The notes beneath the pieces are model-generated. The model was not told where the DNA came from. It worked only from the letters and a program-made list of their open reading frames with translations, and did not search any database. DNA of 64,000 nucleotides from Chiloscyllium plagiosum (lineage: Eukaryota). A program made the translations under genes and the position numbers. The stretch is from positions 90,568,376 through 90,632,375 of the forward strand of contig NC_057718.1 in the NCBI RefSeq assembly GCF_004010195.1. Direction: 5' to 3'. The stretch's first letter is position 1, and the number at the start of each line of letters is the position of its first letter. Positions 1,398 to 64,000 of this stretch are shown here, in pieces.

Positions 1398-1942
1398 AAT
1401 AAAAACTGAAAAAGCTGCGGATACGGACCAACGTCTCTGTCCCGGGCTTGCTGCAGTGCTCCAGGGAAGCTCAGTGCAAAAACTGGAAGAACAACACCTC
1501 ATTTTCCACTTGGGAATCCTTCTGGACTCAATATCGAGTTCAACAGTTTTGGGCTTGAGGTTCCCATGTCCTTACCCCAACCCTCCCACACCAGGACATG
1601 TTATCACATAGTCTGCTATTACAGACAACCCATTGTCAGCCACCAACAATCCCCATTAACAGCTATCCACCCTCCTAGTCAGATTGCTATCCATTTCTTT
1701 GTCTATCCAACTGTCATTGTTTTTCCTTGGGCCCTATGTTCGCCTATCATTTACCCCTGATCTCCGTCTCTCTCTTTCTCTCTCTCCTGCATACCCACCC
1801 TCTTTCTTCTGCATAAAAACCAACAATTTCCTCACCACCACTGGTTCTGAGCGAGGGTCTCCAGACCTGAAACATTAACTCAGATTTCTCTCCACGAGAC
1901 GCTGCCAGAGCTGCTGAGATTTTCCAGCAGCTTCTGTTTTTG
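1398..1942 (+). mobile_element. Penelope-like element 3' fragment (end of GIY-YIG region plus terminal repeat, decayed family D hammerhead)
   Basis: Encodes KLEEQHLIFHLG..GLNIEF-like C-terminus; decayed hammerhead ggttctgagcgagggtctccagacctgaaacattaact at ~1842-1880; 11-bp TSD cctctgagcaa at 1387-1397 and 1943-1953. Confidence 0.8.
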
Positions 1943-2639
1943 CCTCTGAGCAAGGTTGAGTCACACGCCGATGAGATGCAAGCTCTTGAATCACCCTCGT
2001 CTCTCATCCACCTTGAGAGTGCTTCTGGCAAGTGGTCGAGTCCTTCTCCCTGAGCTAGAGGATTTGGGTTCAAGTCCGACCTGTTCCAGAGGTGTATGTC
2101 CTAACATCCCTGAAATGGCTTGATTAAAAATATCTGTCATCAGGCTTGCAAGGCTGGTGTGTGAATATGTGCCCAGTAATATGAGTTCTCGAAATAACTC
2201 GTCGAGTAAGGTTTGTGAAGAATAAAGCACGACGTGAAAAGGCAGATCTTTTTATTTTGCGATTTTCTAATTTATACCTACAATCGGTGATGCTTGATTT
2301 TTTATTTCTTTATTTTTAATAAGGCTACCCCCCCCCAAAGAAAACTTATACTGAAGACTCTGTACCTATGTACCTCCTACCTAGGATGGCGCTGTAAATG
2401 GCGACTTGTAAATTTTTCTCTGTACTCAGTTCAGTACATGTGACAATAAAGCCAGTTTTAAATGCCAACATTTGGCTGATTCTAGGGTAACAATCTATTC
2501 ATACTGGATGTTTAAATCAGAAGCCCTGTCTCTTTTTGATTTGACCTAAAGTCTTTGTGTCCTTTCTCTTTCGATACCTCTCAATTCTTTCCCTCCTGAA
2601 ATATGTCTGCTTTTCTCTGAATAACCTTTTGGAAATTTC

Positions 2640-3265
2640 ATAGAATCCCCGCAGTGTGGAAACAGGCCATTTGGCCCAGCAAGTCCACACTGACTCTCCG
2701 AAGAGCAACCCACCCAGATCCGAACCACTATCCTAACTGATGCACCGAACTTACACATCTTTGGACCCTATGGGCAATTTAGCATGGCCAATTCACCTAA
2801 CCTGTGCATCTTTGGATTGATGTGGAGGAGCTGGTGTTGGATTGGGGTGGACAAAATTAAAAATCACACGACACCAGATTATCATCCCAACAGGTTTATT
2901 TGGAAGCACTAGCTTTCGGAGCACTGCTCCTTCATCATAACCACCTGATGTCTGATGCTTCCAAATAAATCTATTGGACTATAATCTGGTGTCGTGTGAT
3001 TTTTAACTTTGTCCACCCCAGTCCAACACTAGCTCCTCCACATCAGTCCTAAGATGCGCAGGTTGGGTGAATTGGCCATGCTAAATTGCCCAACCTGGTG
3101 TTGTGTAATTTTTAACTCAGCCCATCTTTGGATTGTGGCAGGAAACCAGAGCACCTGGAGGAAACCCACGCAGACCTGGGGAAAATGTGTGAACTCCACA
3201 CAGACAGTTGCCCAAGGCTGGAATCGAATCCGGGTCCCTGGTACTGTGAGGCAGCAGCGCTAACC
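2640..3265 (-). mobile_element. HE1-type SINE interrupted by an inverted PLE terminal-repeat insertion
   Basis: HE1 hallmarks (gtgtggaaacaggcc tail, gggcaatttagcatggccaattcacctaacctg body, tRNA-like head); insertion at 2820-3122. Confidence 0.9.
2820..3122. mobile_element. PLE-derived inverted-pair insertion (hammerhead family B)
   Basis: Arms tgatgtggaggagctggtgttgg... and ...ccaacactagctcctccacatca are reverse complements; 13-bp TSD catctttggattg at 2807-2819 and 3123-3135. Confidence 0.85.
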
Positions 3266-3451
3266 CTCCCATTTAAAGCACAACATAGATCAAATCTGTT
3301 GTCTCATTTGATTGTTTTAAAAATTCTGCATTATTTGGAGAACTCTGAACTGAGCACCGAAGGAAGTCTGCACATGTCCAATATGTGTCTTGGAATCACT
3401 ACTATGCAAATTCACTGGATTGGTTCCTGGGACTGAGGGCCAAAATTAAAA

Positions 3452-3533
3452 TGGGGCTGGAAAAGCATAGCAGGTCAGGCAGCGTCCGAGGAGCAGGAAA
3501 ATCGACATTTCGGGCAAAAGTCCTTCATCAGGT
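3452..3533 (-). mobile_element. PLE terminal-repeat fragment (hammerhead family A, decayed)
   Basis: Reverse complement reads cctgatgaaggacttttgcccgaaatgtcgattttcctgctcctcgg. Confidence 0.8.
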
Positions 3534-4185
3534 CCAGTGAGATACTCATGTCCCCAGATATAGTAGGACTACAACCAATTGAGCAATTCTGCGCATCATT
3601 CTATCCTGTTTACACTGAGGGTGGGGTTGTGAATACTGGATGTTGGCTTCAGACTCAAAGCAGCCTCCAAAGTTATGAACGTGACTGTCTGATTACCATG
3701 TCAGTCTTGCACATTGGAGTAATTCACAGACTAGTCGAAGACATTGTGGAGCTAGTTACAAATCCTGCCCAATCATTGGAAAGTTTCCTAAAAGCACATT
3801 TGCTGGCTTGGAGTGCAGTGGAAAAACTGGAAGTGCAGGAATGCACTGCCACTGAGGGGAAAATTATCTGGATCACTGGGCCATGCAATGAAATCATTCC
3901 AAAGCAACTGCCTGGTTTTGGAGCTTGGAAAATAAATGAGAAGATGCATTGTGCCGCTTTGTTTACTAGTTGCTGTGCTAACCTCTGAATCTACCTGGAG
4001 CAATTTTCCATCTCCATATTGTTCCTCTGTTTGGCAGCCTGAGCAAGGAGTTGACGTGTGCTGTGTGCACTTCTCTGGCTGTTTATTTGAAAGAGTCAAC
4101 AACAACACCCTGTGCTTACGTAGCACCTTTTAGTGTCAGAGAACAACCCGGAGTGTTCCACGGGAGTGTTATGAAGCAAACTAAG

Positions 4186-4455: not shown

Positions 4456-4554
4456 CTAGCTTTGTATTCTAGAGCTAAAATGTGATGCCAAGGCATCATA
4501 CGGTGATATTGGGATAGACGGTTACCGTTTATCAAGGTTTTAAGTAGCATCTTG

Positions 4555-4858
4555 GGGTGGCACGGTGGCTCAGTGGTTAGCACTACTGCCTCAAGGCGCC
4601 AGGGACCTGGGTTCGATTCCAGCCTCAGGCAACTGTCTGTGTGGAGTTTGCATGTTCTCACCGTGTCTGTGTGGGTTTCCTCTGAGTGCTCCGGTTTCCA
4701 CTCACAGTCCAAAGATGTGCAGGTCAGGTGGATTGGCCAGGTTAAATTGCCCACAGTGTTAGGTGGAATAGTCAGAGGGAAATGGGTCTGGATGGGTTAT
4801 CCTTTGGAGGGTCAGGGTGGACTTGTTTGGCTGAAGGGCCTGTTTCCACACTGTAGGG
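4555..4858 (+). mobile_element. HE1-type SINE
   Basis: Full head, body and cctgtttccacactgtaggg tail. Confidence 0.92.
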
Positions 4859-4869
4859 GAAAGATAATC

Positions 4870-5470
4870 TAACCTTGAAGGAAGAGTAAGAAGTGACAGA
4901 GTTCACAGGGGAGGGGGGAGGATCACCAGAGATTGACGCCTTGACATCTAAAGGCATGGTTGCCGACGGTGAAGCAATTAAATCGGAAATGCTCAAGAGG
5001 CCAGAACAAGATGAGTACAGTGACCTCAAATGGATTTGGGATTGAAAGTTACAGAGAGAGGGAGGGCCGAGGTCAAAGGGGAATCGGTAACAGAGGGTTG
5101 AGAATCTTCAAAAATAAGGCTTTGTCTCTTACAGGAGCTGGCTCAGGTCAGTGGGAACGGTGCTTGGTGTGAGCTGGAACATGAGCGGCAGGAGGATCTC
5201 AAGATTGTGGAGCATGGAATGTGGGAGGTCAGCCTGAAGGTCATTGGGGTAGTCAAGTCTAGAGATAACAAGAGTGTCAGTACCAAATGAACTGAGATTG
5301 GGGGTGGGCGGGGGGAGAAAGGGGATCGAAACTGAACAATGTTACAGAGGTTCAGACCCCTCATCTCGGGATCAAACATGACACCAAGTTTACAAAGTGT
5401 CAGACCATTACCAGAGACAGGGATGGAGTTGGTAACTAGAGAATGGTAGTGGCGATCAAAGATAATCTCT
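4870..5470 (-). mobile_element. Decayed L2-clade LINE 3' fragment
   Basis: Minus-strand KLGVMFDPEM and tctagacttgactac (SRLDY), typical of the post-RT region of L2. Confidence 0.65.
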
Positions 5471-5860: not shown

Positions 5861-6240
5861 GCAGGGCAGAGGAAATGACCTGGGAGTTGCAGCGGGAGAG
5901 GAACTCCCTGAGATTCTTGTAGAGAGAGGAGGAAAACTTCTTCAAGGCAGGCATCCTTCCAAGAGGATTTGCTGTAGGGTTAAAATCAACGAGGTAAAAA
6001 CAATGACTGTAGATGCTTGAAACCAGAGTCTAGATTAGAGTGGTGCTACTTTCTCCCCACCCCCACCCTCCTCTCTTTTATCTCTCCACCCTTCAGGCAT
6101 TCTGCCTGTATTCCTGATGAAGGGCTTTTGCCCGAAACGTCGATTTTACTGCTCCTCAGATGCTGCTTGAACTGCTATGCTTTTCCAGCACCACTAATCC
6201 AGAATCTGGTTTCCAGCATCTGCAGTCATTGTTTTTACCT
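5861..6240. mobile_element. PLE insertion: inverted terminal repeat plus ORF start (minus) joined to a sense terminal repeat with hammerhead
   Basis: 5990-6048 is the reverse complement of 6187-6240; minus arm runs into ATG MPALKKFSSSLYKNLRE; 14-bp TSD agt(c/t)tgcaatagct at 5847-5860 and 6241-6254. Confidence 0.85.
6110..6145 (+). ncRNA. Minimal type I hammerhead ribozyme motif (family A), intact core
   Basis: TC-CTGATGA-A-GGGC tttt GCCC-GAAA-CGTC-GA: conserved core, stem II hairpin, ACGT palindromic stem III, GUC cleavage triplet. Activity untested. Confidence 0.8.
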
Positions 6241-9036: not shown

Positions 9037-9074
9037 AAGGTTTGACTTTCTGGATACATTACATACACTTTTAA

Positions 9075-9270: not shown

Positions 9271-9647
9271 ATAAAGAAAACAAAATAGTAACGCTTTGTA
9301 TTATTCAAAAAGTATCAGTGCGTACAGTGAATTACGCAGGCATGTCACACTGATGAGTGAGGTAATGGGTTATAAGCTTGCTTTTGGAATTTTATGGCAT
9401 TGTGACGGACGTGCACAACAACAACTCTCATTCTGTAGTGCCTTTCAAAAGAGTAAAAGATTCTACTGGGTGGCAATGATTTCACATTGAGCTAGTCAGT
9501 ATTAGATCAGAGGGCCAAATGTGCTTCTTAAAAGAAATTGGAAAGAGGTTTCGGGACAGAATTCCAGAGCTTAAGCAGCTGAAGGTGCAATCCCTGCTGG
9601 GGAACTAAGTGACATCTGAAATTATCACAGAGAATCTTGTGTAGCCA

Positions 9648-9848
9648 TGATGTGGAGGTGCTAGTGTTGGACTGGGGTGGATAAGGTCAGAAGTCACACG
9701 ACACCAGGTTATAGTCCAACTGGTTCATTTGAAATCACAGGCTTTCTGAAGGCCGCAGGGTCACCTGACAAAGGAGAAGGCTCCAAAAGCTTGTGATTTC
9801 AAATAAATCTGTTGGACTATAACCTGGTGTTGTGTGACTTCTGAGTCT
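9648..9848. mobile_element. PLE-derived inverted pair (family B, decayed hammerheads)
   Basis: aagtcacacgacaccaggttatagtccaac and gttggactataacctggtgttgtgtgactt are inverted arms around two decayed cores. Confidence 0.8.
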
Positions 9849-11559: not shown

Positions 11560-11732
11560 GTAATTACCTCTCTGCCTTAATTAATCGGATCGTAGGCCAT
11601 CCCCTCACTTGCCATTCAGCTGTTGACATTTCACATACACCGCTGAAGGGCTTATGCCCGAAACGTTGACTCTCCTGCTCCTCGGATGCTGCCTGACCTG
11701 CTGTGCTTTTCCAGCTCCACACGTTTCGACTT
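11560..11732 (+). mobile_element. PLE terminal-repeat fragment (family A, damaged core)
   Basis: ctgaagggcttatgcccgaaacgttgactctcctgctcctcggatgctgcctgacctgc; 3 nt deleted from the core. Confidence 0.75.
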
Positions 11733-11902
11733 TACTCACACAGAATGACACTTTTGATCACTTGCAAAAACTTGCTATTCCACCTCCCGACACTCAACTC
11801 ACACCATTTGTACGATCTTTTGACACTCTTAATTACTTGGAATTATCTTGCAGTTGTCTGTCCATCTACAAGTTCTGTGCCTGTGCGCTTCCCTCCACTG
11901 GA

Positions 11903-12368: not shown

Positions 12369-12487
12369 TTCATTTCACCTGATGAAGGGGCAGCGCTCTG
12401 AAAGCAAGTGCTTCCAAATAAACCTGTTGGACTATCTCCTGGCGTCATGTGACTTCTTTCTCTGAAGCAGATGGTCCCATTGTTATC

Positions 12488-12621
12488 CCCTTGTTTCCTG
12501 AAGAAGGGCTTATGCCCGAAACGTCGATTCTCCTGTTCCCTGGATGCTGCCTGACCTGCTGCGCTTTTCCAGCAACACATTTCCAGCTCTGATCTCCAGC
12601 ATCTGCAGCCCTCACTTTCTC
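12488..12621 (+). mobile_element. Solo PLE terminal repeat with intact family A hammerhead (core 12498-12525)
   Basis: CTGAAGA-A-GGGC ttat GCCC-GAAACGTC; 12-bp TSD cccattgttatc at 12476-12487 and 12622-12633. Confidence 0.88.
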
Positions 12622-14479: not shown

Positions 14480-14990
14480 AGACGTGCTTGATGCTTTGGA
14501 AACTTTTGAGAAACTTTCCCTTCTATCCACAGCTAGGAAAATCCTGACGTACGTACTCCTGAATCAGTTACTTCCTGTGGCTGAGGAAATTCTCCCAGAG
14601 ACGCGTTCTGGCTTTGGACCTTCCACAGGAGCACACTGTCTCAGGATCTCGGATTCCAAGAAAGTCTGAGGAAAATGTGTGACAAATAACAGCATTCACT
14701 GTATTCATTGACCTCCATCTCCCTATCGCAACCTCAGCTACCTTCCCTCCAGCCTCACCACCCCCTCCCATTTATCTCTCAGCCCTCTTGGCCCACGAGC
14801 CTCATTCCTGATGAAGGGCCTATGCCCGAAACGTCGATTTTCCTGCTCCTCAGATGCTGCCTGACCGGCTGTGCTTTTCCAGCGCCACACTCCCGATTCA
14901 TTGACCTGATCAAAACATCTGATTCAGTAAAAGGCTGATGTGGATTGCTCTCCAGAGATTCGAATATCTTAAGCAAACGTCTTCCCAATC
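14480..14990 (+). mobile_element. RTE-clade LINE RT fragment interrupted by a PLE terminal repeat
   Basis: LSLLSTARKIL..LLNQLLPVAEEILPETRSGF and FIDLIKTSDSV match decayed RTE RT motifs. Confidence 0.75.
14715..14895 (+). mobile_element. Solo PLE terminal repeat with intact family A hammerhead (core 14808-14835)
   Basis: CTGATGA-A-GGGC ctat GCCC-GAAACGTC; 12-bp TSD attcattgacct at 14703-14714 and 14896-14907. Confidence 0.87.
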
Positions 14991-15420: not shown

Positions 15421-15610
15421 ATCAAGATTAGAGTGGTGCTGTAAAAGCACAGCAGGTCAGGCAGCATCCGAGGAGCAGGAAAATCGACGTTTCGGGCAGG
15501 AGCCCTTCATCATTTTCCTGCCCCTCGGATGCTGCCTGACTTACTGTGCTTTTCCAGCACCACTCTAATCGAGACTCTAATCTCCAGCATCTGCAGTCCT
15601 CACTTTCGCC
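15421..15610. mobile_element. PLE-derived inverted pair (family A)
   Basis: Inverted arms; 14-bp TSD tgtttg(g/a)aatggca at 15407-15420 and 15611-15624. Confidence 0.87.
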
Positions 15611-16519: not shown

Positions 16520-16652
16520 TATTCCTGATGAAGGGCTTTTGCCCGAAACATTGATTTTCCTGCTCCCCGGATGCTGCCTGACCTGCTGTGCTTTTCCAGC
16601 ACCGCTCTAATCTCGACTCTAATCTCTGGCATCTATAGTACCCACCTCCGCC
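16520..16652 (+). mobile_element. Solo PLE terminal repeat (family A hammerhead, CpG-decayed stem III)
   Basis: ctgatgaagggcttttgcccgaaacattg; 10-bp TSD tgactgtatc at 16510-16519 and 16653-16662. Confidence 0.87.
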
Positions 16653-17557: not shown

Positions 17558-17844
17558 CCTCTCTCCACAAGAATCTCAGTGAGTCTCTCTCTCACTGCAC
17601 CCCCCCATGTCATCTCCTTGGCCCTGAAGCTCTTCAACCATGTCCTGAAACAGACTCGCTACCGCAGCCACATACATCTGCTTACTTTTTGCTACCTTCT
17701 CCTACCCCCCCCCACTCCAATTTATCTCTCCACCCTGGAGGCTCCCTGCCCCTATTCCTGATGAAGGGCTTTTGCCTGAAAGGTCGATTTTCCTGCTCCT
17801 CGGATGCTGCCTGACCTGCTGTGCTTTTCCAGCACCACTCTGAT
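17558..17844 (+). mobile_element. Internally deleted PLE: ORF 5' segment fused to terminal repeat with hammerhead
   Basis: 17558-17680 is homologous to the ORF start seen on the minus strand at 5861-5954; hammerhead core at 17758; 14-bp TSD ctaaacaaaatgct at 17544-17557 and 17845-17858. Confidence 0.82.
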
Positions 17845-18553: not shown

Positions 18554-19377
18554 TTAAAACATGGGCTGCTGTTACTTTCTTAAAGCTGCCCCCACTGACT
18601 GTGCACACAGTTGGAGTTAACGGTCACCTCAAGGTCTGTCATGATCAATGGACAGGATTAGAGGGGATGTATTGGGTATTCAAAGAATGCAGGGCCTTGT
18701 GAGAAAATTGCTTTTGCAGGAGTGAATGTTATGACTGTTAAATCATCGCTGTCTGGGGGGAGGTCTCTTTGAAATGAGATGAATAGGAGTGGACGGTCTG
18801 TTCTGTGGCTGAGACAGCACTCTGGAGTGTGGCAGCTTTTCACTGAATTGTGAACAGCACAGGAAAAGGCCATTCAGCCTCTCCTGAGGAGCAGCGAGGC
18901 CAGGGTCATTCCCTGCCGTAACCCCGCCCGTTCCTCCTTTCCAGACAATAATGCAAGTGCCTCAGTTGAACCAGCCTCCACCACACTCTGAGTCTTGTTC
19001 ACTCGCTGCACTCACAGGCTCCTCCTCACATCTTCATTTCCATCCACCTCAAATCTGTGCCCAGCTCTCGTTCTCAATCCTTCCCTCGCCAGCAAGACCA
19101 GTTTCTCCTTCTCTACCCCATCAGGACCCCATTCTGATTTTGGGCAACTCTCTCTAATCTCCCCCAAAGCAAACTAACCCGAATTCTCCAATCTACCTGG
19201 CAAGCTGGAGTTCCTCGCCCCTGGAAAATTGTAAAGCCTTTCACTGCTAGTTGTTGAGGAAGTTCAGTCCTTGAAAAGGCTCCTGTTTCTTGTAAAATGT
19301 TGCTGAGTTCACTCACAAGATGCACTGGTTAAAAATCACACAATGCCAGGTTACAGTCCAACAGATCCATTTGGAAG

Positions 19378-19412
19378 CACTAGCTTTCGGAGCGCTGCTC
19401 CTTCATCAGGTG
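19378..19412 (-). ncRNA. Minimal type I hammerhead ribozyme motif (family B), intact
   Basis: Reverse complement CAC-CTGATGA-A-GGAGC agc GCTCC-GAAA-GCTA-GTG: perfect stems I and II, AGCT palindromic stem III, CUA triplet; lies within PLE fragment ~19328-19535. Confidence 0.85.
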
Positions 19413-19603
19413 GTTATGGAGCATGACCAGAGGACACAGAATTTATAGCAAAAGGTTACAGTGTCACGCAACTGAAATGATATATTGAACAAACCTAGTT
19501 TGCTGTTAAGTCTTTCATCTTTTAGAATGGGCACAAGCTGACTTGGAGCGAGACCATGCCAATGAGCATGCTCCTTCAAGGAACGTTGGAAAACCAGGAG
19601 GCC

Positions 19604-20165
19604 AGGTTTGTGAAGGTTTGTAGCTCACGTTGAGGTTTAGGGTGTAGGTTTGCTCGCTGAGCTGTAGGTTTGATATTCAGACGTTTCATTACCTGGATAG
19701 GTAACATCATCAGTGGCGACCTCCAAGTGAAGCGAAGCTGTTGTCTCCTGCTTTCTATTTATATCTTTCTCCTGGATGGGGTTCCTGGGGTTTGTGGTGA
19801 TGTAATTTCCTGTTCGTTTTCTGAGGGGTTGATAGATGGCATCTAGATCTATGTGTTTGTTTATGGTGTTGTGGTTGGAGTGCCAGGCCTCTAGGAATTC
19901 CTCTCTCTCCCTCATAGCCCTACAAACAGATGAAAAAAACCACCATTTCGACTGGGACAACACATCCTGGGACAGGCTAAGCAAAGACATGCCAGAGAAT
20001 TCCTAGAGGCCTGGCACTCCAACCCCATCCAGGAGAAAGATATAAATAGAAAGCAGGGGATAACATCTTCGCTTCACTTGGAGATCGCCACTGATGATGT
20101 TACCTAGCCAGGTAATGAAACGTCTGGATATCAAACTCCCAGCTCAGCGAGCAAATCTACACCCT
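19604..20165. mobile_element. PLE inverted-pair insertion (family C) with GIY-YIG C-terminal remnants
   Basis: Both arms encode EFLEAWHSN; minus arm continues HNTINKHIDLDAIYQPLR; hammerheads at 19677-19716 (-) and 20088-20127 (+); 13-bp TSD aaaccaggaggcc at 19591-19603 and 20166-20178. Confidence 0.9.
20088..20127 (+). ncRNA. Minimal type I hammerhead ribozyme motif (family C), intact core
   Basis: CCA-CTGATGA-T-GTTACC tagcca GGTAAT-GAAA-CGTC-TGG. Confidence 0.83.
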
Positions 20166-22574: not shown

Positions 22575-23475
22575 TTAGAGTCATACAGTATGTAAACAGG
22601 AATTGCTGGAGAAGCTCAGCAGGTCTGGGAGCAACAGTAGAGAGAGAAACCATGCTGACCAGGTTTCCTAAATTGAACTAGTCCCATTGGCCCTGCATTT
22701 CACCCATAGTTCTCTAAACCTTTCCTGTTCATGTACCTCGAGCGTGGTGCTGGAAAAACACATCAGGTCAGGCAGCATCCGAGGAGCAGGAGAATTGACG
22801 TTTCAGGCATAACCCTTCATCAGGAAGGATATACGCCCGATGAAGGCCCTATGCCCGAAATGTTGATTCTCCTGCTCCTCGGATGCTGTCTGGCCTGATG
22901 TGTTTTTCCAGCACCACACTCTCAACTCTGATCTCCAGCATTTGCAGTCCTCACATTCTCCTATCCATGCACCTGTCCAAATGTCTCTTAAATATTGTAA
23001 CTGTACCCATCTCTACCACTTCCTCTGGAAGCTCATTCCATATACCCACCACCCTCAGGTCCTTTTTGTAAATCTTTCCTGTCTCACCTTAAACATGCCC
23101 TCGAAGGTTTGGACTCCGCTACACTAAGGAAAATACTTTTGCCATTCATTTTATGTATGCCCCTCATGATTTTATAAACCTCTTTGAAGTCATCCCTCAG
23201 CTCCAAGGGAACAAAAGACTCAGCCTATCCAGCTGCTTCTTATAACTCAAACCCTCCAGTCTCGGTAACATCCTTGTAAATCTTTTCTGCACCCTTTCCA
23301 ATTTAATAACATCCTTCCTATAGCAGGGCGACCAGAACTGGAGGCAGGACCCCAAAAGTGACCTCACCAATCCCCTGTACAGCTGCAACATGACATCCCA
23401 ACTCCTACAGTCAGTGCACTGTCTGATGAAGGCAAACGTACCAAATGCCTTCTTCACTAGCCTGCCTACCTGCTA
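22575..23475 (-). mobile_element. CR1-type LINE 3' fragment interrupted by PLE pieces
   Basis: KKAFGTFAFI..WDVMLQLYRGLVRSLL..FWSPCYRKDVIKLERVQKRFTRMLP; family A inverted pair at ~22739-22960 with a degenerate TSD. Confidence 0.9.
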
Positions 23476-24129
23476 CTTCTTATCCTTCCAAAAAGCTGTG
23501 GATATCCTTCAAGATGGCCAGGATGAGGGAAAAGGTAGCAGTCTGGAAGATGGGAAGTGGAATTGAGATGCTTCCTGAAGTTTGGCCCAGGTTTTCTTCC
23601 TCCATAGATCAAAATATCACAAAGCTCTTCGTGAAGATGTTAATCTTTATTTCTTGGCAGTATCAGCACATTACCATCTGTTAGTCCGTTACTCAGTCAT
23701 GGTTCTATTCATACCACACTCTGCTCTATGTCAGTCCTCTTTCAGAATCTGAACACCAACATAAAACTGGACTGTCTCTCATACTCAGAGAGAGTTGCAC
23801 TCTATTAAAAGCACAAAGTCCTGCAGGCAGCAGACAGCTCTAGAGAGAGAAGCAAAATTAAAGTTCCAAAGAAGTGTCCTACCAGACTTGAGATGTTAAC
23901 TCTGTTTCTCTCCCCACTGTTGCTCCCAGACCTGCTGAGCTTCTCCAACAATTCCTGTTCTTACTTCAGATCTCAGAGTCCGCAACATTTCATTTTAATT
24001 TTGAGCATGGCACTGTCACAGGTGCTGATGTTAAATTGAGACCCCATCCCCCAACTCAGGTGGGGGTTGGGGGGGTGCGGTAGAAGATTCCGGAAGGCCA
24101 TTTGGAAGAAAAGCATTGGGAGTTATCCC

Positions 24130-32964: not shown

Positions 32965-33150
32965 AGACAAAATAAAACCTGCAGATGCTGGAATCCAAGG
33001 TAGACAAGCAGGAGGCTGGGAGAACACAGCAAGCCAGGCAGCATCAAGAGGTGGAGAAGTCAACATTTCGGGTGCAATCCTTTCTCAGGACCTGGGGTGG
33101 GTGTAAGGGGGAGCTGCGGAATATAACTTGAGGCAGGTGATCAACCTGGT
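32965..33150 (-). mobile_element. PLE terminal-repeat fragment (family E, decayed hammerhead)
   Basis: Reverse complement gtcctgagaaaggattgcacccgaaatgttgac; same family at 63860-63975. Confidence 0.7.
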
Positions 33151-36205: not shown

Positions 36206-38138
36206 CACTCCTCATGTCCACTTCCCTGCCCCTCTCCCTTGATTCCCCAACTGCCTTTTTCTCTTCCTGACAGAGTGCGTGGATGAGATTGGGAAGTGCC
36301 CCATCCACTCCCTGTCAGTGAGGAGAGCCTGTAATTATCTCCCTTCTCCAGAGGGAATGTTGGGAGACAGGTGAGATTTTTGAAACCCATTTGATTGTAT
36401 TTTTTAATTGCTGGGTGAGGTAATTAGGGATATGGAGCAAAGGTCGGTGAAGGGAATAGAGCTACAGCTAAACCCTACCCTGTTCAGCCTCTCCCTACAG
36501 CTCAAACCCTCCAACCCTGGCAACATCCTTGTAACTCTTTTCTGAACCCTTTCAAGTTTCACATCTTTCCTACAGCAGGGTGACCAGAATTGCACACAGT
36601 ATTCCAAAAGTGACCTAATCATTGCCTAGTACAGCTGCAACATGACCTCCCAACTCCTATACTCAATACTCTGACCAATACTAAATGCCTCCTTCACTAT
36701 CCTGTCTACTTGAAAGATTAAAGACCTGGCTGTATTCCATTGCTTCATTATTAAGAATGCCATTTACACAAACTTGAAGCCCGTTGATCCTGCTCTGTCA
36801 GAAATATCAATGATTTCAGCAGATCAAGCCTGGTTTATCTTGAGCTGCCTGTGTAAATGGGGCTGGAATAGGGATGTGATGCTCACATATTGGCCTTGAA
36901 ACATTAACTCGGTTTCTCTCTCCACAGCTGCAGCCAGATCTGCAGAGTTTCTCCAGCACTTTCTGCTTTCCTTTTGGATCTCCAGCCTCCACAGCATTTT
37001 TGCTTTTATTCGGCTGCAGAATTCTGCCAACGTTGGGAGCGCAGGATCTCAATGTCTATCCTCTCGCTTCAAACTGCAGCCCCCAACCCCCACGCACTCT
37101 TATGTGTTTATGGGTGAGTCGATTCTGTCTGTTAGGTTCAAGGGATCTAGAAATAAACGAGTTTTGGATTTTTTCACTCCTCATGTCCACTTCCCTGCCC
37201 CTCTCCCTTGATTCCCCAACTGCCTTTTTCTCTTCCTGACAGAGTGCGTGGATGAGATTGGGAAGTGCCCCATCCACTCCCTGTCAGTGAGGACAGCCTG
37301 TAATTATCTCCCTTCTCCAGAGGGAATGTTGGGAGACAGGTGAGATTTTTGAAACCCATTTGATTGTATTTTTTAATTGCTGGGTGAGGTAATTAGGGAT
37401 ATGGAGCAAAGGTCGGTGAAGGGAATAGAGCTACAGCTAAACCCTACCCTGTTCAGCCTCTCCCTACAGCTCAAACCCTCCAACCCTGGCAACATCCTTG
37501 TAACTCTTTTCTGAACCCTTTCAAGTTTCACATCTTTCCTACAGCAGGGTGACCAGAATTGCACGCAGTATTCCAAAAGTGACCTAATCATTGCCTAGTA
37601 CAGCTGCAACATGACCTCCCAACTCCTATACTCAATACTCTGATCAATACTAAATGCCTCCTTCACTATCCTGTCCACTTGAAAGATTAAAGACCCGGCT
37701 GTATTCCATTGCTTCATTATTAAGAATGCCATTTACACAAACTTGAAGCCCGTTGATCCTGCTCTGTCAGAAATATCAATGATTTCAGCAGATCAAGCCT
37801 GGTTTATCTTGAGCTGCCTGTGTAAATGGGGCTGGAATAGGGATGTGATGCTCACATATTGGCCTCGAAACATTAACTCGGTTTCTCTCTCCACAGCTGC
37901 AGCCAGACCTGCAGAGTTTCTCCAGCACTTTCTGCTTTTCTTTTGGATCTCCAGCCTCCATAGCATTTTAGCTTTTATTCGGCTGCAGAATTCTGCCAAC
38001 GTTGGGAGCGCAGGATCTCAATGTCTATCCTCTAGCTTCAAACTGCAGCCCCCAACCCCCACGCACTCTTATGTGTTTATAGGTGAGTTGATTCTGTCTG
38101 TTAGGTTCAGGGATCTAGAAATAAACGAGTTTTGGATT
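36206..38138. repeat. Tandem duplication of ~965 bp (36206-37170 and 37175-38138)
   Basis: Colinear copies offset by 969 bp with roughly a dozen differences by eye; tttt at the junction; each copy holds CR1 and PLE fragments. Confidence 0.97.
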
Positions 38139-40339: not shown

Positions 40340-40940
40340 CTAGAGTCATATAGCACGGAAACAGACCCTTCGGCCCAACCAGTCCATGCTGAACGTAATC
40401 TCAACCTAAACTAGTCCCACTCACCTGCACCTGGCCCGTATCCCTCCAAACCTTTCCTATTCATGTACTTATCCAAATGTCTTTTATACATTGTAATTGT
40501 TTGAGAGAAAGTGAGGGCTGCAGATGCTGGAGATCAGAGCTGAAAATGTGTTGCTGGAAAAGCGCAGCAGGTCAGGCAGCATCCAAGGAACAGGAGAATC
40601 GACGTTTCGGGCATAAGCCCTTCTTTGGATGGGCTTATGTTCCTGTTCCTTGGATGCTACCTGACCTGCTGCACTTTTCCAGCAACACATTTTCAGCTAC
40701 ATTGTAATTGTGCCCAGATCCACCACATCCTCTGGCAGCTCATTCCATACACGTACCACCCTCTGTGTGAAAAAGTTGCCCCTTAGGTCTCTTTTATATC
40801 TTTCCCCTCTCACCCTAAACCTATGCCCTCTAGTTCTGGACTCCCCGACCCCCAGGGACTAGACTTTGCCTATTTATCCTATCCATGCTCCTCATAATTT
40901 TGTAAACCTCTATAAGGTCACCCCTCAGCCTCCAATGCTT
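40340..40940 (-). mobile_element. CR1-type LINE 3' end interrupted by a PLE inverted pair
   Basis: CR1 3' sequence on both sides of 40501-40697. Confidence 0.9.
40501..40697. mobile_element. PLE-derived inverted pair (family A)
   Basis: Inverted arms; perfect 14-bp TSD tacattgtaattgt at 40487-40500 and 40698-40711. Confidence 0.9.
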
Positions 40941-43397: not shown

Positions 43398-43700
43398 ATA
43401 GATTAGAATCCCTACAGTGTGGAAACAGGCCCTTCGGCCCAATAAGTCCACACCGACCCTCCGAAGAGTAACCCACCCAGACCCATTCCCCTACATTTAC
43501 CCCTAACTGACACATCGCTGAAAACTATGGGCAATTTAGCTTGGCCAATTCACCTAACCTGCACATCTTTGGATTGTGGGAGGAAACCCACACAGACACA
43601 GGGTGAATATGCAAACTCCACACAGTCACCCGAGGCTGGAATCGAACCCAGGTCCCTGACGCTGTGAGGCAGCAGTGCTAACCACTGAGCCACCGTGCTG
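43398..43700 (-). mobile_element. HE1-type SINE
   Basis: Well-preserved full-length copy. Confidence 0.93.
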
Positions 43701-43837
43701 CTCTTAACTAGTTTCTAATCAACCTGTGCAGAAAATTTACTACCAACCTCTGGAGCAGATGGGACTTGAACCCTGGTCTTCTGGTTGGTAGGTAAGGAAA
43801 CTACCACCCCACCACAAGAGCCACCTACTTGTCCAAC

Positions 43838-48575: not shown

Positions 48576-48577
48576 GG

Positions 48578-49790: not shown

Positions 49791-50549
49791 TTACATGAAG
49801 TTGTGAGTGCATATCAGTCCTGAAATTCTCAATAAGCAGCAACAGCTCCCCCACCCCCAATGATAATCCAGCTCTTTAACAGGATTAGCTCTGACACCTC
49901 TCATCTTCAATAATCCATTTACATTCAGCGATCCTCGATTTAATGACATTACACATCCCATATGGAAGCTGCACTTCCCATCCCCCTCTCTATTTGCTGT
50001 CTTCCTTTCCTCTCGATAGCTTGCTCTGTCCTCTCTCTCTCTCTCTGTCTCATCCCCTCACTCCTCCCTCTCTCTTTCTCTCTCTCTATCCTTCCTCCTG
50101 TCTCTCTCTCTCTTTCACATCTCACACCATCTTACAGCAGAGGAGGTCATTTTGGTCCACCATGTCTGTGCTGACTCGTTGAAAAACCTGATGAATGGCT
50201 TTTCCCTTGAATCTGCAGCATACTCCACTTTAATGATATAGGGGAACCTCGATTATCCAAACATCAATAATTCAAATTTCAGATTATCTGAACAAGATCT
50301 CAAGGTCCCGTAAAAATGCCATTAGGCAACTCAGCATTCAGTTATCAGTTAAACGGCATTATAGCATTCTGGAGGTAAGGTGCTCGCTGAGCTGGAAGGT
50401 TTGTTTTCAACCGTTTCATCACCGTACAAGGTAACATCATCAGTGAGCCTTTGGTGAAGCACTGGTAGTATGGCCTGCTTTTTATTTATGTGTTTAGGTT
50501 TCCTTGGGCTGATGATGTCATTTCCTGTGGTGATGTCATTTTTTTTAAC

Positions 50550-51833: not shown

Positions 51834-52879
51834 TCCGGTGGTGAAGTCATTTCCTGTTCTTTTCCTCAGGGGGTGGTAAATGGGATCCAAGTCAATGTGT
51901 TTGTTGAGGGAGTTCCAGTTGGAATGCCACGCTTCTAGGAATTCTCGTGCATGTGTTGCCGGGTAACCGAGGCATGTTTGCTAACCGGCACTCAAATTAC
52001 AAATTACAGTTTACAACCAGATTAGTTATCCGAACAAAATACTCCCCGCCCATCTCATTCGGATAATCAAGGTTGTCCTGTATATTTAAATGTCACTTGA
52101 AGGCTCACCTTGCATCAACCCAGTTCCAATGCCTCTTAAGAGAGTTATCTGTCGACAAGGTATAAATTTCCCAGCGACCAGCAGGGAAAGAAAAACCATG
52201 GGCATCACCTTCCCTTCCAGAGAAACCCTCCCGAATCTTGTGGCGCGAGGTGTTGTCAGTGGTGGAGTTCGCCGCACTCTTGCCCCAAAATCACAAGCTT
52301 TGAGCTAAATTTCTAGTTAAATCCAAGAGAGAGACTTGCGACGGGAGTGCTGCTCTGTCTGCGGTGCTTGGATACCAAACTGAGGCCGCTGCTGTCTGCT
52401 CATGTTTGGGTGTAAAAGATCCCTTGGCTTCGTTCAAAGAAGAGTAGACACGTTCTCCCTGGATTCTTGGCCAATATTTATCCGATGACCCGATCACTAC
52501 CACGTTGCTAGTGTGTGCAATTTGGTCTCTGCATTTCCTACACACGGCAATCACCACGCTGCAGAGGTCTGTCATTGAGTCTGAAATTCACCTTGAGATG
52601 CATGCAGTCATCTTGAAAATTGCAATATAAATACTCCTTTGTTCTTTATTTCTGTTGCCTTTTACAGCAAGGTGAGATTTTGCCTGGTTTCATGAGATCC
52701 ATCTCAAATGGAATCCAATGATTCAAGAAGGCAGCTCATCACCTCCCCCTCTCAAAGGCAATGAATGCTGGCCGAGCGATGTCCATGTGCCCAGAATGGA
52801 TTTAGAAGGTCCACAATGCCTTTCTCCTCAATTAAATTAGCTCCATTACATTCGTCACGAGCCACACTGGGCTTTGTTT

Positions 52880-55899: not shown

Positions 55900-56132
55900 T
55901 GCTCAGCAGGTCTGCCAGCATCTGTGGAGAGAAATCAGAGTTAATGTTTCTGGTCGAGTGACCCTTCCTCAGAACTGATGGTAGCACCGACCATTTTCCT
56001 AGCTACCAACAGTTCTGAGGAAGGGTCAGTCGACCAGAAACATTAACTCTGAGTTCTCTCCCTGCCAGACCTGCTGAGCTTTCCAAGTAATTTTGACTTT
56101 TATTCCAGCATCTGCAGTCCTTTCAGTTTTTA
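55900..56132. mobile_element. PLE-derived inverted pair (family D) with two hammerhead motifs
   Basis: AGTT-CTGAGGA-A-GGGTC..GACCA-GAAACATT-AACT at 55939-55976 (-) and 56011-56048 (+). Confidence 0.85.
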
Positions 56133-56789: not shown

Positions 56790-56900
56790 GCATCTCCCCG
56801 TCATTGCTGAGGAAGGGTCGCTTGACCTGAAACGTTAATTTTGATTTCTCTCCCTGCCAGATCAGCTGAGCTTTTTCAGTAATTTCTATTTTTGTTACAG
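56790..56900 (+). mobile_element. PLE terminal repeat (family D hammerhead with ACGT stem III)
   Basis: ctgaggaagggtcgcttgacctgaaacgttaatt; a further decayed copy at ~57848-57955. Confidence 0.75.
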
Positions 56901-57550: not shown

Positions 57551-58197
57551 ATTTACCAATCAGAATGAAGTTACTGCATTATAACATTGACAGCAGAAAC
57601 TGAGAGTCAACGAGCAACTCTGCCACTTATACAAGGCTCCTCGTCTATCATAAGATTTGGAACCGCAAAGGTGGAAGGTTGGAATCAATCTTATATTGAC
57701 ATGGCTGCAAACTGAGGTCTTCCAGGGACGATATGTTTAGGAGAAAATAATCCAGCGACTGGCACTCAAGGGAGCAGTTGGTGAAGTGGGAGGTTGAGAG
57801 CAGGATAAGGTGAGCTTGAACATTTGCAGCAATCAGCTCAGCTTTCCGGGTTCTGAGGAAGGGACACGCCACCCGATACATGAACTCTTGATTTCTCCCC
57901 ACCGATGCTGCCAGACCTGCTGAGCTTTTGCATCAATTTCTGTTTTGGTTTCAGTTGCTAGGGAATGGGTTTAAATGTGCAGCTTGCTATCACGTTCAGC
58001 TTCCCGCACTTTCAGGCGGAGCTACTTCATGACGCACCAGGACCCTGGCATTAAGCAGCAACATCCGAAAGGCCTACGTTGAACTGGATTGTTACTCGTT
58101 GGTCTCCATGGTGATGAGATGACTCTTTTCCTTTTAGTGAAAGAAAATCTATTGGCGAGAACTGCGTATTCAGAAAATCTGAAAATGTTTTGAAGTT

Positions 58198-59200: not shown

Positions 59201-59609
59201 GGCTTTTGGAGGGCTTTTAAATGTAATTGTACCAGCCTTCACCACTTCCTCTGGCAACTCATTCCATACATACATCCCCTTCTGCTTATGTTTCAGTTAA
59301 TCTTTCTTCAACTCTTCAATTCCATTATGCATTTTAAAAGTCTGACAACTCATTTTATAAATGTCTTAGGAGATGGTTTTCCAAGTCATGCGTTTTTATA
59401 TTTATATACAATCAATCTTACAAAAAACTGCAATACCTCAAGAGTCAATTTTATGCTTTACAATGCACGGGACATCAACAGTGAGGAATGAAACACTTCT
59501 ACATCTGTCAATGACAACATCAAATAATCTTTATCAACAAAAATCCCTTATTTGATCCAAATAAAGCATAAACCAGTATGAACCAAGTCTGACTTTCTCA
59601 TTTCAAAGC

Positions 59610-59700
59610 TAAAAATCTCACAACAACAGGTTATAGTCCAACAGGTTTATTTGGAAGCACTAGCTTTCGGAGCGCTGCCCCTTTATCAGGCGGTTGTGGG
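59610..59700 (-). mobile_element. PLE terminal repeat (family B hammerhead with core mutation)
   Basis: Reverse complement cgcctgataaaggggcagcgctccgaaagctagtg. Confidence 0.8.
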
Positions 59701-61504
59701 GTATACTCCATATACTCATATGCTCCATTTCAGGAGAATGTCCATTTAGGATCGAAGGACCAACTGATAAAGTCTATGCCTTTTAAGTCCAGCAGGAAGG
59801 GCATGATACTTTGAGCTTTGCCTGGATTGAACTGCATGTTCTGGATTTGAAAAAAACTGCTGAATATTAATAGGCTGAGAGTTGGTTAACTGCTTCTCTT
59901 AACTGATGTTGCACAGTGGAGATTCAAGCCAATTTATATTTGAATGAACAATCTAGATGTACACTACATTGTGCTCATAGCACGAAAAAAGTGAATTCTC
60001 AACTTTCACTGGAGCAAATGAATGTTTTTTTTCTTCATTCATGGGATGTGGGCATCGCTGGCTTGCCAGCATTTACTGCCCATCCCACACTCTCCTTGGT
60101 GGTGAGCTGCCTTCTTGACCTACTGCAATCCACATGCTCTGGGTTCACCCCCAATGCTGTTAGGGAGGGATTTCCAAGATTTTGACGCAGTGACAGTGAA
60201 GGAACAGCAATATATATCCTAAGTCAGGATGGTGAGCAGTCTGGGGCAGAACTAGAAGGTGGTGGTGTTCAGTTGCTCACCTTAGAGCTGGTTCAGACAT
60301 GATGGAACGAATGGCCTCTATCTGCACTGTAACAATTCTATAATAGTAAATGTCATCTCTCCTACTAATCCAGCTCCGGTAAGATCATGCTGAATCTACA
60401 ATTCACCCATTTCAAGGCCATTATATACTTGCTATGCTTTTGTGCATTGACCTGTATGCAGTGGTCCAGATGTGATCTAGCTGAGCTTCCGATAACCGTT
60501 ACAAACCTTCCTTGCCTTTCTGCTCTTGTCTTCTGTTTACAAATGCTTTTGGATTTTTTTTTGTATCTGATCCCTACAATTTAGACCAATTAACTTGAAT
60601 CTGTAAGATATCAATCACTATAAAGAGGAAATTCATGTCTTTAGCACCCTAGCAACCAAAATTCTGCCTAAATGGCGAATATTGCCCTCAACTAAACTCT
60701 GGTTATCCTTTCGTCTCGCTGAAGGTCAAGGGAAGTCCATATGTTTGGCTGTGTATAAAATGGAATACTTGTAAACACATCTCATGCACCGTCTACAATC
60801 ACCTGAAATGTAAAGTGTTTCTGTCACATAACAAAAGCAAAATATACTGATGCTGGAGATCACAGATATGGAGAAAACAGAAGCGCTGGAGAAACTCAGC
60901 AGGTCTGGCAGCCTCTGTGTGAGAGAGAGAGAGAAAACAGGTGGAACGATTCTTTGTGGAGCTGAACTGACATCAGTTCTGAAGGAAAACATTGATTGAC
61001 TCAATGCTCGGAGTTGTTGAATGTAAAACTCAAACAGATTATCCATGTAGAGCAGGCTCGAGGGGCTGAATGGCTGATATCTGCTCCGACTTTGTATGTT
61101 AGCTGTGCTGCTTTCTGCTGCTGGAACTGCGGTGTTTTTGCAGCATTCCCGTTACTGTGTTATCTCTGTGTGACTGGACTTGCCCTCTTGCGCACCGTGG
61201 ATCTGAGGCTGTGCAGAGATAGATTTGGAGGTAGGACTGGGAGCAACCTTTGAGATTTAGGGGTTATAATCTACCCCGCATCCACCACGCGCACCAAATG
61301 CTCTTGCTCTGTAGCTGCCGTAGGAAGGTCGGGCCAAGACCATAGTGGCTACAGAGTTTGTGCTGGTCACTGGGATCCTTCCATCGAGGTCAAAAGCCTG
61401 AGGGTCAACATCTTGTTGAATATTCCTCCCCATAAAGAAACATGCTCACTCCTCATCCGGGCGACTGCTGCCAATCTTTTTTTTTCGCGCCAGTCTAGAC
61501 CCAG

Positions 61505-61843
61505 GGGCGGCCCAGGTGGCTCAGTGGTTAGCACCGCTGCCTCACAATGCCAGGGACCCAGGTTTGATTCCACCCTCAGGTGACTGTCTGTGTGTGTGGA
61601 GGTTGCACATTCTCCCTGTGTCTGCGTGGGTTTGCTCCGGTTTCCTCCCACACTCCAAAGACGTGCAGGTTAGGTGGATTGGCCCGTAGGAAATTACTGC
61701 AGAGCGTCCAGGGATGTTCAGACCAGGTGGGTTCGCCGTGGGCAGTACAGGGTTGCAGCAATTGGTAGGAAAACGCTCTTCGAAGATCGGTGTGGACTCG
61801 ATGGGCTGAATGGCCTGTTTCCACTCTGCAAGGATTCTGTATG
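61505..61843 (+). mobile_element. HE1-type SINE
   Basis: Head, body and tail present. Confidence 0.9.
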
Positions 61844-62869
61844 TGTAAGAAGGATTACATGTACGGTGTGTTGGGTTAAATCAGCCATACGTGCTACTTA
61901 ATGTAAAAAGGACTTTCGAGGAGTAAGCTATGAGAAAGAACCTCTCCCTCCAAAACAAATAATATCGCATCCCATTCCCATTTGGTGCTCAACTAGGAAA
62001 CTATGGCAACGGTATAATTGCCTATGTGGTTAAATGTTGCCATGAGGGTCATTCAGTGTATTCACCTGGTAAATGCCAGCTAATGAGTGTAACAGAGGAG
62101 GGCTGTTTCTGTACAGTTACACGCTGGGAGAACATTAGGGGCTCTGCTTGCTGCAGGACATGTTTCGGAAAGGGAGATTACTTCTGAGTGGGAGGCTCAT
62201 TGCTAGCTGCCTTCTGAGAAAACTTACCGGGAGGCGTATTAATTGTGAGGCCTCTCGCAAGACCTCCCTGCGAGTGACATTTTCGCACATCTTCCTGGGG
62301 ACCTCGCACCATTGGTGCACTCTTTCTCTCTGTGTGAGAACTCTGGCATAAACGAAAGCTGAGGGGGCCGGGGGGGGGGGGGGAGGGGGGGGTGGTTTGC
62401 AGTCTGGAGCGAGGAACTTGGTTGTTTCTCTGCACATTTGCCTGGCACTTCTGCGCTGATCCTGACTGTACACCTTCCCAAGTTTGCAGGAACAGAGAGG
62501 TCTCACTGAGGTCAGTGCACCAGGCCACCAGAGAGTGGAAAAGTTCCCAACGTCACCTTCAGCTCGCTTTGTTCCTGTTCACACATCTGCTGCACAGCTG
62601 CACAGCGACCAACACACTGTACCCCTACTTTGGGTACAAAGTCTTAAACTTTACTATCAGATGTACAAGAGGTTAACAAATGGACGAGAGCAGAGGGGCC
62701 CCTCTAAATGATGTCCGAGAACACAATGCCGAAACATTAATTAAAGCTAATCCCAACACTGGCACAACTGGACCCAGCCATTTAAGCAGTGCACTTCCAT
62801 TGCCCAATCTCAACATCACTTCTATTAAAGAGACTCCCAATGTGGAGCGGTCACTCTGAAATTGAATGG

Positions 62870-63027
62870 AACAAAAAAATGGGAACTGCAGATGCTGGAA
62901 ATTAGAGTCATGATTAGAGTGGTGCTGGAAAAGCACAGCAGGTCAGGCGGCATCATTCTTGATGACAGGCTTTTGCCCGAAATGTTGATGTTCCTCCTCC
63001 TCAGATGCTGCCTGACCTGCTGTGCTA
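62870..63027. mobile_element. PLE-derived inverted pair (family A, decayed)
   Basis: gcacagcaggtcagg / cctgacctgctgtgc arms; mutated core ttgatgacaggcttttgcccgaaatgtt. Confidence 0.78.
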
Positions 63028-63304
63028 ATACAGATTGCTATGTCAAACTAACATCACAGAGTATCACAGCATTATTGAGTTTAGCAAGAATTACAATAAA
63101 AGGTTACTTTAGTGAGACCAGTAGGATTTTGGTTCTCCACAATCTTTGCTCAAATAAGTCATATTAAATGGTTCTGAGATGAGAGGCAGGCAATATAGTT
63201 GTAATGACTCTAGACTAGTAATCCAGAACACCAGGCGTATGTCCCGGGGTTGAGGGTTCAGATACCACCATGACAGATTGCAGGAATTTGACTTCAACAG
63301 AAAA

Positions 63305-63525
63305 CAGAGCTGAAAATGTGTTGCTTGAAAAGCGCAGCAGGTCAGGCAGCATCCAAGGAGCAGGAGAATCGACGTTTCGGGCATGAGCCCTTCTTCAGGA
63401 ATGCTGAAGAAGCTCATGCCCGAAACGTCGATTCTCCTGCTCCTTGGATGCTGCCTGACCTGCTGCACGTTTCCAGCAACACATTTTCAGCTCTGATCTC
63501 CAGCATCTGCAGCCCTCACTTTCTC
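63305..63525. mobile_element. Young PLE-derived inverted pair (family A) with back-to-back hammerheads
   Basis: Near-perfect palindrome; intact minus-strand core at 63367-63400; 13-bp TSD cttcaacagaaaa at 63292-63304 and 63526-63538. Confidence 0.92.
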
Positions 63526-64000
63526 CTTCAACAGAAAATAGTCTGGCATAAAAGCTAGTCTAATGGCAACCACCTAACAATGTTATAAAAGCCCATCTGG
63601 TTCCCTAATGACCCCTGAGGGAAGGAAAGCTGCTGCCCTTACCTGGTGTAGCCCACAAAACAGCATGGTTGACTCTTAATTGCCCCCTGAAATGGCCCTA
63701 GCCACTCATGTGGCAATTAGGGAAAAGCAATAAAGACTGACCCAGCTCACATCCCATGACCAAGTTAAAAATTACGCTGATAAGCCAAACAGCCTTTATT
63801 CCTGCTCTTAAATATCCTTCCTCCCTTCCATCGAGGACACCATACCATACGAGAATAAGAGACAAAAAAACCTGCAGATGCTGGAATCCAAAATAGACTG
63901 CAGGTGAAGAACACAGCAAGCCAGGCAGCATCGAGAGGTGGAGAAGTCAATGTTTCAGGTATAACCCTTCAGCTCCTGATTTAGATTAGATTAGATTCCC

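Follow-up and report, generated by a model that had tools for sequence, protein, structure and literature searches.

The stretch of DNA analysed here (the window; 64,000 nucleotides of contig NC_057718.1 of the shark Chiloscyllium plagiosum) is densely populated by copies of the terminal regions of Penelope-like elements (PLEs). Alignment anchored on the tail downstream of the hammerhead motif recognises 41 of them, belonging to four families (A 20, B 7, C 3 and D 11). These copies are end-fragments of PLEs whose pseudo-long terminal repeat (pLTR) holds the known minimal hammerhead ribozyme (min-HHR), the short ones probably being dead-end cDNAs of the uncleaved 5' leader. An initial annotation had already recognised the minimal type I hammerheads of PLE terminal repeats, an identification upheld by the match to the published consensus and by links to PLE open reading frames (ORFs).

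Hammerhead motifs in the window and the genome

A strict scan (exact CTGAnGA and GAAA enclosing a stem II of 4 bp or more, one base being optional ahead of the stem) retrieved 12 core-plus-stem-II loci in the window, as against none in each of 10 dinucleotide shuffles. Among the 41 copies, all 11 core letters are present in 16, at most one change is seen in 26 and at most two in 29. The initial claim of more than 20 copies therefore holds when one core change is allowed, but not for the strict scan or the all-letter count. The extra unpaired base between positions 9 and 10.1, likewise claimed, is found in 11 of the 12 strict window matches and in 22 of 24 matches from random genome stretches, the remaining two being non-family matches. 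As for the coordinates given earlier, 6114, 12498 and 14808 (+) of family A are core starts, while 63392 lies inside a motif whose core starts at 63398 (-). Those of B (19378-19412, -) and C (20088-20127, +) are correct, as is 56807 for D, whereas 55939 and 56011 correspond to stem-I ends, the cores themselves being at 55972 (-) and 56015 (+). The D cores cited do exist but all three are damaged, the latter two having G.A at 10.1/11.1 and ACAT in place of ACGT, and 56807 a broken first stem-I pair. The Rfam scan of the window yielded 25 matches at E<=10 and no hammerhead among them, so that the Hammerhead_1 search proposed as a check overlooks these motifs; its miRNA matches coincide with inverted units and simple repeats. 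The tRNA scan of the window returned 0 matches.

The motifs agree with the min-HHR consensus of metazoan PLE pLTRs (CUGANGAH-G..C-GAAA-palindrome-UH with a short stem I; Cervera & De la Pena 2014, PMC4209133) in having CUGANGA, GAAA and UH, with stem II closed by G10.1-C/U11.1. The commonest stem-I pairs (2.1-1.1, 2.2-1.2 and 2.3-1.3) are C-G, U-A and U.U in family A, C-G, A-U and C-G in B, A-U, C-G and C-G in C, and U-A, U-A and G-C in D, with predicted cleavage triplets GUC (A, C), CUA (B) and GUU (D). The compensatory stem changes expected among families are borne out by a motif-anchored count, in which 14 of 16 family-level pairs (stem I and 15.2-16.2) are Watson-Crick (permutation p=1.4e-4), this count covering only pairs outside the script filter and four families, of which two are related. 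Many of the copies had been supplied by genome patterns that included the letters of these pairs; unselected copies give the same majorities. Helix III is absent. A15.1 and U16.1 are separated by just 2 nt, and a helix III can thus form only between two copies, via the palindrome at 15.2/16.2 (ACGT in A and C, AGCT in B, and mostly ACAT by decay in D, 22/38). Cleavage would thus call for a dimer or for the protein of the element. An inverted unit places its two motifs on opposite strands, so that they cannot pair in cis, and such units are predicted to fold into long hairpins (-140 to -177 kcal/mol).

In the family A motif, the non-CpG columns with more than 30% minority letters are confined to N7 (T 52, A 38 in unselected copies) and loop II, and CpG decay at G12, the palindrome and C17 amounts to 17-29%. 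Every feature is kept in 27/92 unselected motif-spanning copies of A, 4/16 of B, 3/11 of C and 0/27 of D. The subfamily differences at N7 and loop II, together with the CpG decay, point to a hammerhead selected in master elements and decaying neutrally in the copies.

In the 3.56-Gb genome, exact-pattern counts, which are lower bounds, reach 39,637 for A, 1,563 for B, 1,937 for C and 1,092 for D, with 0 for reversed controls. A random sample of forty 10-kb stretches, taken from fixed places in the interior of the 20 largest contigs and amounting to 380,535 non-N bases, contains 24 strict cores (Markov controls 0-2), i.e. 0.063 per kb (bootstrap 0.039-0.092) or an estimated ~2x10^5 genome-wide, which confirms that the units are abundant; the window, with 12 per 64 kb, has about three times the genome average. 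All tails together occur at ~0.26 per kb, or near 9x10^5 genome-wide. Most of the ~200,000 intact-looking copies are likely inert. A young family is nevertheless at hand, with 150 GIY-YIG matches at 97-100% identity. A further motif at L212:2031-2070 (+), with C as the extra base, stem II GGGT/GCCC and flanks unlike those of the other families, possibly represents a fifth minimal hammerhead family.

Parent elements and the ends of the copies

Each family can be linked to PLE proteins. For family A, locus L235 holds a 649-aa ORF with a DKG motif, a reverse transcriptase (RT) domain (RVT_1, E 1.3e-8), a C-x4-CxxC linker and a GIY-YIG domain whose E of 2.9e-4 falls just short of the Pfam curated cut-off; the A motif lies 159 nt past the end of this ORF, and a same-strand motif follows the GIY-YIG match in 11 of 15 loci. 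For family B, L241-L243 hold RT and GIY-YIG frames and the motif is downstream of the protein match in 17 of 19 loci. For C it is downstream in 12 of 20 RT loci, and the window copy itself codes for a PLE C-terminus. Family D is the weakest link, with two copies (L086 and window 1398-1942) that carry a C-terminus of A type and no other part of the protein. The anticipated connection to PLEs with RT plus GIY-YIG is hence borne out. The four families, however, are not unrelated as had been claimed: A and D have a common downstream tail and a common protein C-terminus, which leaves three lineages.

The CX2-5CxxC linker between RT and endonuclease (EN) is present in A (L235) and in B (L243; unmatched in L241 and L242), while in family C the GIY-YIG is C-terminal and the linker motif is missing. 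Judged by this linker, as in PMC8557442, A and B would be Neptune-type and C Poseidon-type, with D Neptune-type through its A-like C-terminus; the linker is common to the Neptune and Nematis clades, and Nematis may thus apply equally to A, B and D. The proteins of A and B are only 28-29% identical. For family C, the name also leans on a C-terminal motif that we take to be of Poseidon type.

Direct motif pairs 2.4-3.9 kb apart were considered as full-length elements and rejected, being mostly separate or rearranged insertions. Same-strand pairs 2.5-3.3 kb apart occur in L192 (C at 746 and 3210, +) and L232 (A at 2094 and 5360, +, beside one at 1120, -), and motifs so placed could dimerise in cis; L232 itself represents a partial tandem accompanied by an inverted 5' copy. 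In family B, the 3' untranslated region (UTR) has (CA)n-rich tracts upstream of the motif in L039, L041, L052 and L057, and the family may seed microsatellites.

Target-site duplications (TSDs) of 10-18 bp surround 11 of 32 window units (A 9/15, B 0/5, C 1/2, D 1/10) against 3 of 100 controls. The units had been described as TSD-flanked and 130-560 bp long; those with TSDs do span 125-562 bp, but a TSD is detectable only in these 11. In the wider sample, many copies have TSDs of 8-18 bp, most commonly 14 bp, or a head-to-head inverted arm, and 68 of 150 family A copies are tight-inverted. The 3' ends are bimodal, at about +90/+125 (A), +83/+122 (B) and +100/+133 (D) in the numbering given below, with the two sites 30-40 nt apart; the region between these two fixed ends is the PLE 'tail'. 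The copies thus display the insertion signature of EN-positive (EN+) PLEs, namely a TSD, an inverted 5' copy and an optional 30-40-bp tail. In L107 and at window 5861-6043, the tail is continued by ORF-start sequence, so that motif and tail also occupy the 5' end of the RNA. Pieces of 50-200 nt from the family A ORF start are joined to a 3' pLTR at 5861-6240 and 17558-17840, both with TSDs, and in L107, L039, L005 and L150. The joins fall in roughly one ORF-start stretch, which suggests that template jumps may be preferred there.

The 5' ends are most informative. They were counted from C3 (position 0, with the predicted cut at +28) in 150 family A copies from 843 kb not selected for this family, after removal of 5 copies interrupted by N or by the edge of a locus. 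Random truncation does not account for the short copies: -15..+6 is where 79 of the 150 begin, as against 3 in the 22 bases upstream (-37..-16) and 20 in a bin of equal width downstream (+7..+28). Other starts lie at <=-52 (29), -51..-16 (3), +7..+25 (18), +26..+30 (5) and +31..+55 (16). For the 82 single copies, the three equal bins hold 31, 2 and 10 (p 1e-7 and 1e-3 for the two comparisons). Upstream flanks are mutually unrelated in 44 of 47 single short A copies, 9 of 26 TSD-defined ends fall at -10..+6, and the same -15..+6 peak recurs in B (11/32) and D (27/63). There is no excess at the cleavage site, where the 5 starts of family A at +26..+30 match the rate at neighbouring positions, and none of the upstream-anchored alignments ends there (A 0/54, B 0/25, C 0/67). 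Ten apparent 3' ends at -25..-7 were discarded, since a single deleted reference had produced most of them as artefacts. Inspection of 11 early-ending alignments showed 9 that run through the motif, 1 that leaves the locus and 1 true early end.

An AT-rich box lies ~30 nt upstream of the 5'-end peak. TATAAA is found at -38/-40 in 8/9 references of B, at -47..-50 in 5/7 of C and at -33 in 1/4 of D. In polyA reads of a run picked by its species label, from a library unsuited to start mapping, the depth changes threefold at -4 and the loose ends, found on both strands, are heterogeneous; this step reflects genomic junctions and maps no start site.

Origin of the short copies

In the mechanism proposed, the RNA would start within the pLTR, ~30 nt past the AT-rich box and just before the core. 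RT would initiate internally at the leader tail and reach the 5' end of the RNA after 90-140 nt; the run-off cDNA would be inserted directly to give a short copy, while fold-back or a template jump before insertion would produce units of inverted or chimeric structure. In vitro, the RT of the anole element PAc has been described to initiate internally at two sites, with protein-assisted cleavage and unprocessed RNA as the main template (PMC11167929). Furthermore, pLTRs with TATA and initiator (Inr) elements, 8-10-bp TSDs, inverted pLTRs and solo pLTRs have been reported (PMC3846280). On a slight balance of probability, the genome contains several hundred thousand 'strong-stop' leader cDNAs of Neptune PLEs, which preserve as DNA the RNA start, the two RT start sites and a hammerhead left uncut in retrotransposition.

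Several observations weigh against this origin. At -34/-36, family A carries TTATCT in place of a canonical TATA box (11/13 references), and family C has TATAAA (5/7) but only 1/18 starts at -15..+6 and 2/18 near the predicted -20. The pile-up is broad, at ~20 nt, and in the one polyA read run covering the element no spot has many read ends and both strands are present. No unbroken 5' pLTR-ORF junction was found in 30 loci around the RT N-terminus, nor was any full-length element seen free of interruptions. Apart from these, an internal promoter, such as the TATA-less one of D. virilis Penelope (PMC2377424), would by analogy let short copies transcribe themselves.

The breadth of the pile-up would also fit 5' ends set by a break or a stall, i.e. 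by EN nicking of the element's own pLTR or by pausing of the RT, either past the stem-II hairpin or at an upstream pyrimidine-rich tract. The PAc endonuclease favours ATT in its own pLTR (PMC11167929), family A has ATT at -4..-2, and 48 of the 68 tight-inverted arms also end at the peak. Nevertheless, B and D peak likewise though they lack ATT there, and the reciprocal upstream pieces ending near -10 are almost absent (1 real among 11 inspected), which makes a break or stall an unlikely source. Still less likely is that the short copies are self-propagating, non-autonomous elements, SINE- (short interspersed element) or retrozyme-like, using the hammerhead in their own cycle and borrowing PLE RT. 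More than half of the A copies are units of 90-140 nt, many with TSDs; non-LTR (long terminal repeat) retrozymes derive from PLE pLTRs, one chondrichthyan having them (10.64898/2026.07.22.740005), and an internal promoter is known for Penelope. However, the window has no tandem arrays of the unit, the copy ends disagree with the predicted cleavage site and the predicted hairpins of inverted units bury the motif. No short-only lineage emerges either: the median divergence of 66 short A copies is 4.4% from the nearest of 29 long copies and 5.0% from the nearest short one, a comparison of limited resolution (90 columns, 95 copies). Being as near to long copies as to each other, they look like by-products, and the earlier view of them as a separate class of short retroelements is not sustained, their architecture being already published.

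Very improbable is the co-option of some copies as host regulators that cut host pre-mRNA. Element sequence does occur in polyA reads, on both strands, and the 27 of 92 A copies with every feature kept would suit such a role; but CpG decay strikes G12, the palindrome and C17, the cores lie on both strands, and monomers of this hammerhead class are inactive in vitro (PMC4209133). None of 146 window ORFs (144 of 157 unmasked ORFs of at least 62 aa, plus 2 LINE-like, i.e. resembling long interspersed elements) exceeds the Pfam cut-off, and no host exon was found in the window, though short exons would escape. Reverse transcription of the uncleaved leader thus remains the preferred origin of the short copies.

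Inventory of the window and comparison with known systems

Table 1. Copies of the four families in the window (positions within the 64,000 nucleotides; TSD, target-site duplication)
Position	Strand	Description
880..991	+	D-type copy, old, core decayed
1398..1942	+	Family D unit: frameshifted Neptune-type GIY-YIG C-terminus, 3' UTR, decayed hammerhead (core ~1847), tail; 11-bp TSD at 1387-1397 / 1943-1953
2816..3046		Family B head-to-head inverted pair in SINE-like repeat; minus arm without C3, plus arm tail only
3448..3532	-	Family A short copy, core 3531, damage in stem II and CpG
5861..6240	+	Family A unit: inverted tail and ORF-start piece (5861-6043, minus), 70 nt of 3' UTR, intact hammerhead 6114, tail; 14-bp TSD
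9646..9840		B-type inverted pair, old, cores decayed
11644..11733	+	Family A copy, start within core
12375..12455	+	Family B short copy, core 12379, U16.1 altered
12488..12621	+	Short family A copy, young; hammerhead 12498 intact and predicted to be cut after 12525; 12-bp TSD
14715..14895	+	Family A copy with 3' UTR, intact hammerhead 14808; 12-bp TSD
15421..15610		Family A inverted pair, minus arm without C3; 14-bp TSD
16520..16652	+	Family A short copy, core 16525, ACGT and C17 decayed; 10-bp TSD
17558..17840	+	Family A unit: ORF-start piece fused to 3' UTR, core 17758; 18-bp TSD
19327..19531	-	Family B copy, TATAAAT 40 nt upstream, intact hammerhead 19409
19604..20165		Family C (Poseidon-type) inverted unit: GIY-YIG C-terminal coding pieces, cores 19713 (-) and 20091 (+); 13-bp TSD
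22594..22652	-	D-type tail alone
22740..22962		Family A inverted pair, cores 22823 (-) and 22837 (+), each damaged
23862..23974	+	D-type copy, old, core decayed
32979..33104	-	Divergent A-like copy, core ~33088 with one deletion
36889..37011	+	D copy, start within stem II, unit 1 of 965-bp tandem duplication
37858..37979	+	D copy, start within stem II, unit 2 of 965-bp tandem duplication
40501..40697		Young family A inverted pair within LINE fragment, core 5'-truncated; 14-bp TSD
50366..50539	-	Older family C copy, core 50443, ACGT palindrome broken
51834..51953	-	Family C GIY-YIG C-terminal coding fragment without hammerhead, 82.5%/40 aa versus L247 ORF
52880..53004	+	Family A short copy, core 52881, CpG decay; 13-bp TSD
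55901..56132		Family D inverted pair, cores 55972 (-) and 56015 (+), palindrome and 10.1-11.1 pair disrupted
56798..56900	+	Family D copy with intact core 56807 but disrupted first stem-I pair
57846..57954	+	D copy, old, one core change
59604..59712	-	Family B copy, core 59689, G8 altered
60833..60926	-	D-type tail
62873..63026		Family A inverted pair, damaged core 62959 (+)
63308..63525		Young family A inverted pair: intact core 63398 (-), core 63404 (+) with stem-II deletion; 13-16 bp TSD
63872..63975	-	Divergent A-like copy, start within core

The two divergent A-like copies (32979-33104 and 63872-63975, both -) are 83% identical to each other, have a tail of their own and possibly form a separate old subfamily. 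The 965-bp head-to-tail duplication at 36206-38138 (99% identity), which holds the truncated D copy, is either recent or an assembly artefact. A SINE-like repeat of ~300 bp has ~16 window copies at 70-85% identity (e.g. 43395-43706, 4547-4875, 25797-26093) and may resemble the shark HE1 SINE. LINE 3' fragments, presumably CR1-like, lie at 6843-7348, 8483-9038, 22959-23472, 38444-39410, 50544-51817 and elsewhere; the LINE frames at 8333-8881 (+) and 51070-51714 (-) have no Pfam match. Outside the window, a long tandem repeat that is probably a satellite occupies L132:1-2150, its minus strand having open frames of 596-716 aa.

The motif, its extra base, its dimer-only fold and its spread with truncated PLEs have been known since 2014 (PMC4209133), and the finding in itself is therefore unsurprising to a specialist. 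The min-HHRs described there and those of the window have in common the base added between 9 and 10.1, the occurrence of several families in one genome, compensatory stems, a predominance of single copies, opposite-strand pairs 100-700 bp apart and linkage to truncated PLEs; for the published motifs, activity is reported as low and dimer-only. Stem II of family A has 4 bp, in contrast to 7-8 bp in Schistosoma. In copy number, this genome far surpasses the other vertebrates of that report, with an estimated ~2x10^5 strict cores here as compared to ~4,000 in coelacanth and 9,000 in Xenopus, descriptors differing between the two studies. The host group is absent from the portion of its alignment examined and from a term search of its supplement file 2. 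A literature search covering few subscription journals found no paper on shark PLE hammerheads, on the hammerhead content of shark genomes or on the 5'-end pile-up, though the supplements of PMC4209133 and of the 2026 preprint (10.64898/2026.07.22.740005) may hold shark data. PLE expansion in shark introns is described in a whale shark preprint (10.1101/443036).

Among known PLEs, families A and B share their linker with the Neptune-type EN+ elements (Craig et al. 2021, PMC8557442), low as the identity between the two is, whereas family C resembles Penelope/Poseidon PAc of Anolis (Frangieh et al. 2024, PMC11167929) in lacking the linker motif. The PAc ORF begins within stem II, while in family A the ORF starts after the tail and no subfamily-conserved frame was seen through the motif. 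The internal RT start of PAc at two sites and its uncleaved template fit the two 3' ends of A, B and D and the intact cores; a genomic 5'-end pile-up is not described for PAc in the parts of that report available here. Non-LTR retrozymes are likewise short and non-coding, of PLE origin and furnished with a type I hammerhead (PMC7229834; 10.64898/2026.07.22.740005), and their derivation from pLTRs extends to one chondrichthyan in the preprint. They form direct tandem arrays, those of axolotl having canonical motifs and circular RNAs, whereas the window units occur dispersed, either singly or as head-to-head pairs, have minimal motifs and end away from the cleavage site. No direct tandem array with a hammerhead per unit occurs among 16 tandem-repeat rows of the window, and an independent short lineage is not seen in the 95-copy, 90-column comparison. 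Close direct pairs outside the window (B in L049/L050, 355 bp apart; D in L135, 480 bp apart) are candidates for retrozyme-like dimers or local duplications.

The sharp 5' boundary lends genomic support to the in vitro result that RT starts inside the leader on uncleaved RNA, and the function of the PLE hammerhead becomes a question easier to test with a young family at hand. If the present estimates and reading are true, the ~2x10^5 intact cores exceed the published hammerhead loads compared, including the 126,247 motifs of axolotl (PMC7229834), and the strong-stop cDNAs allow the internal-initiation model of PLE transposition to be tested directly on genomic sequence.

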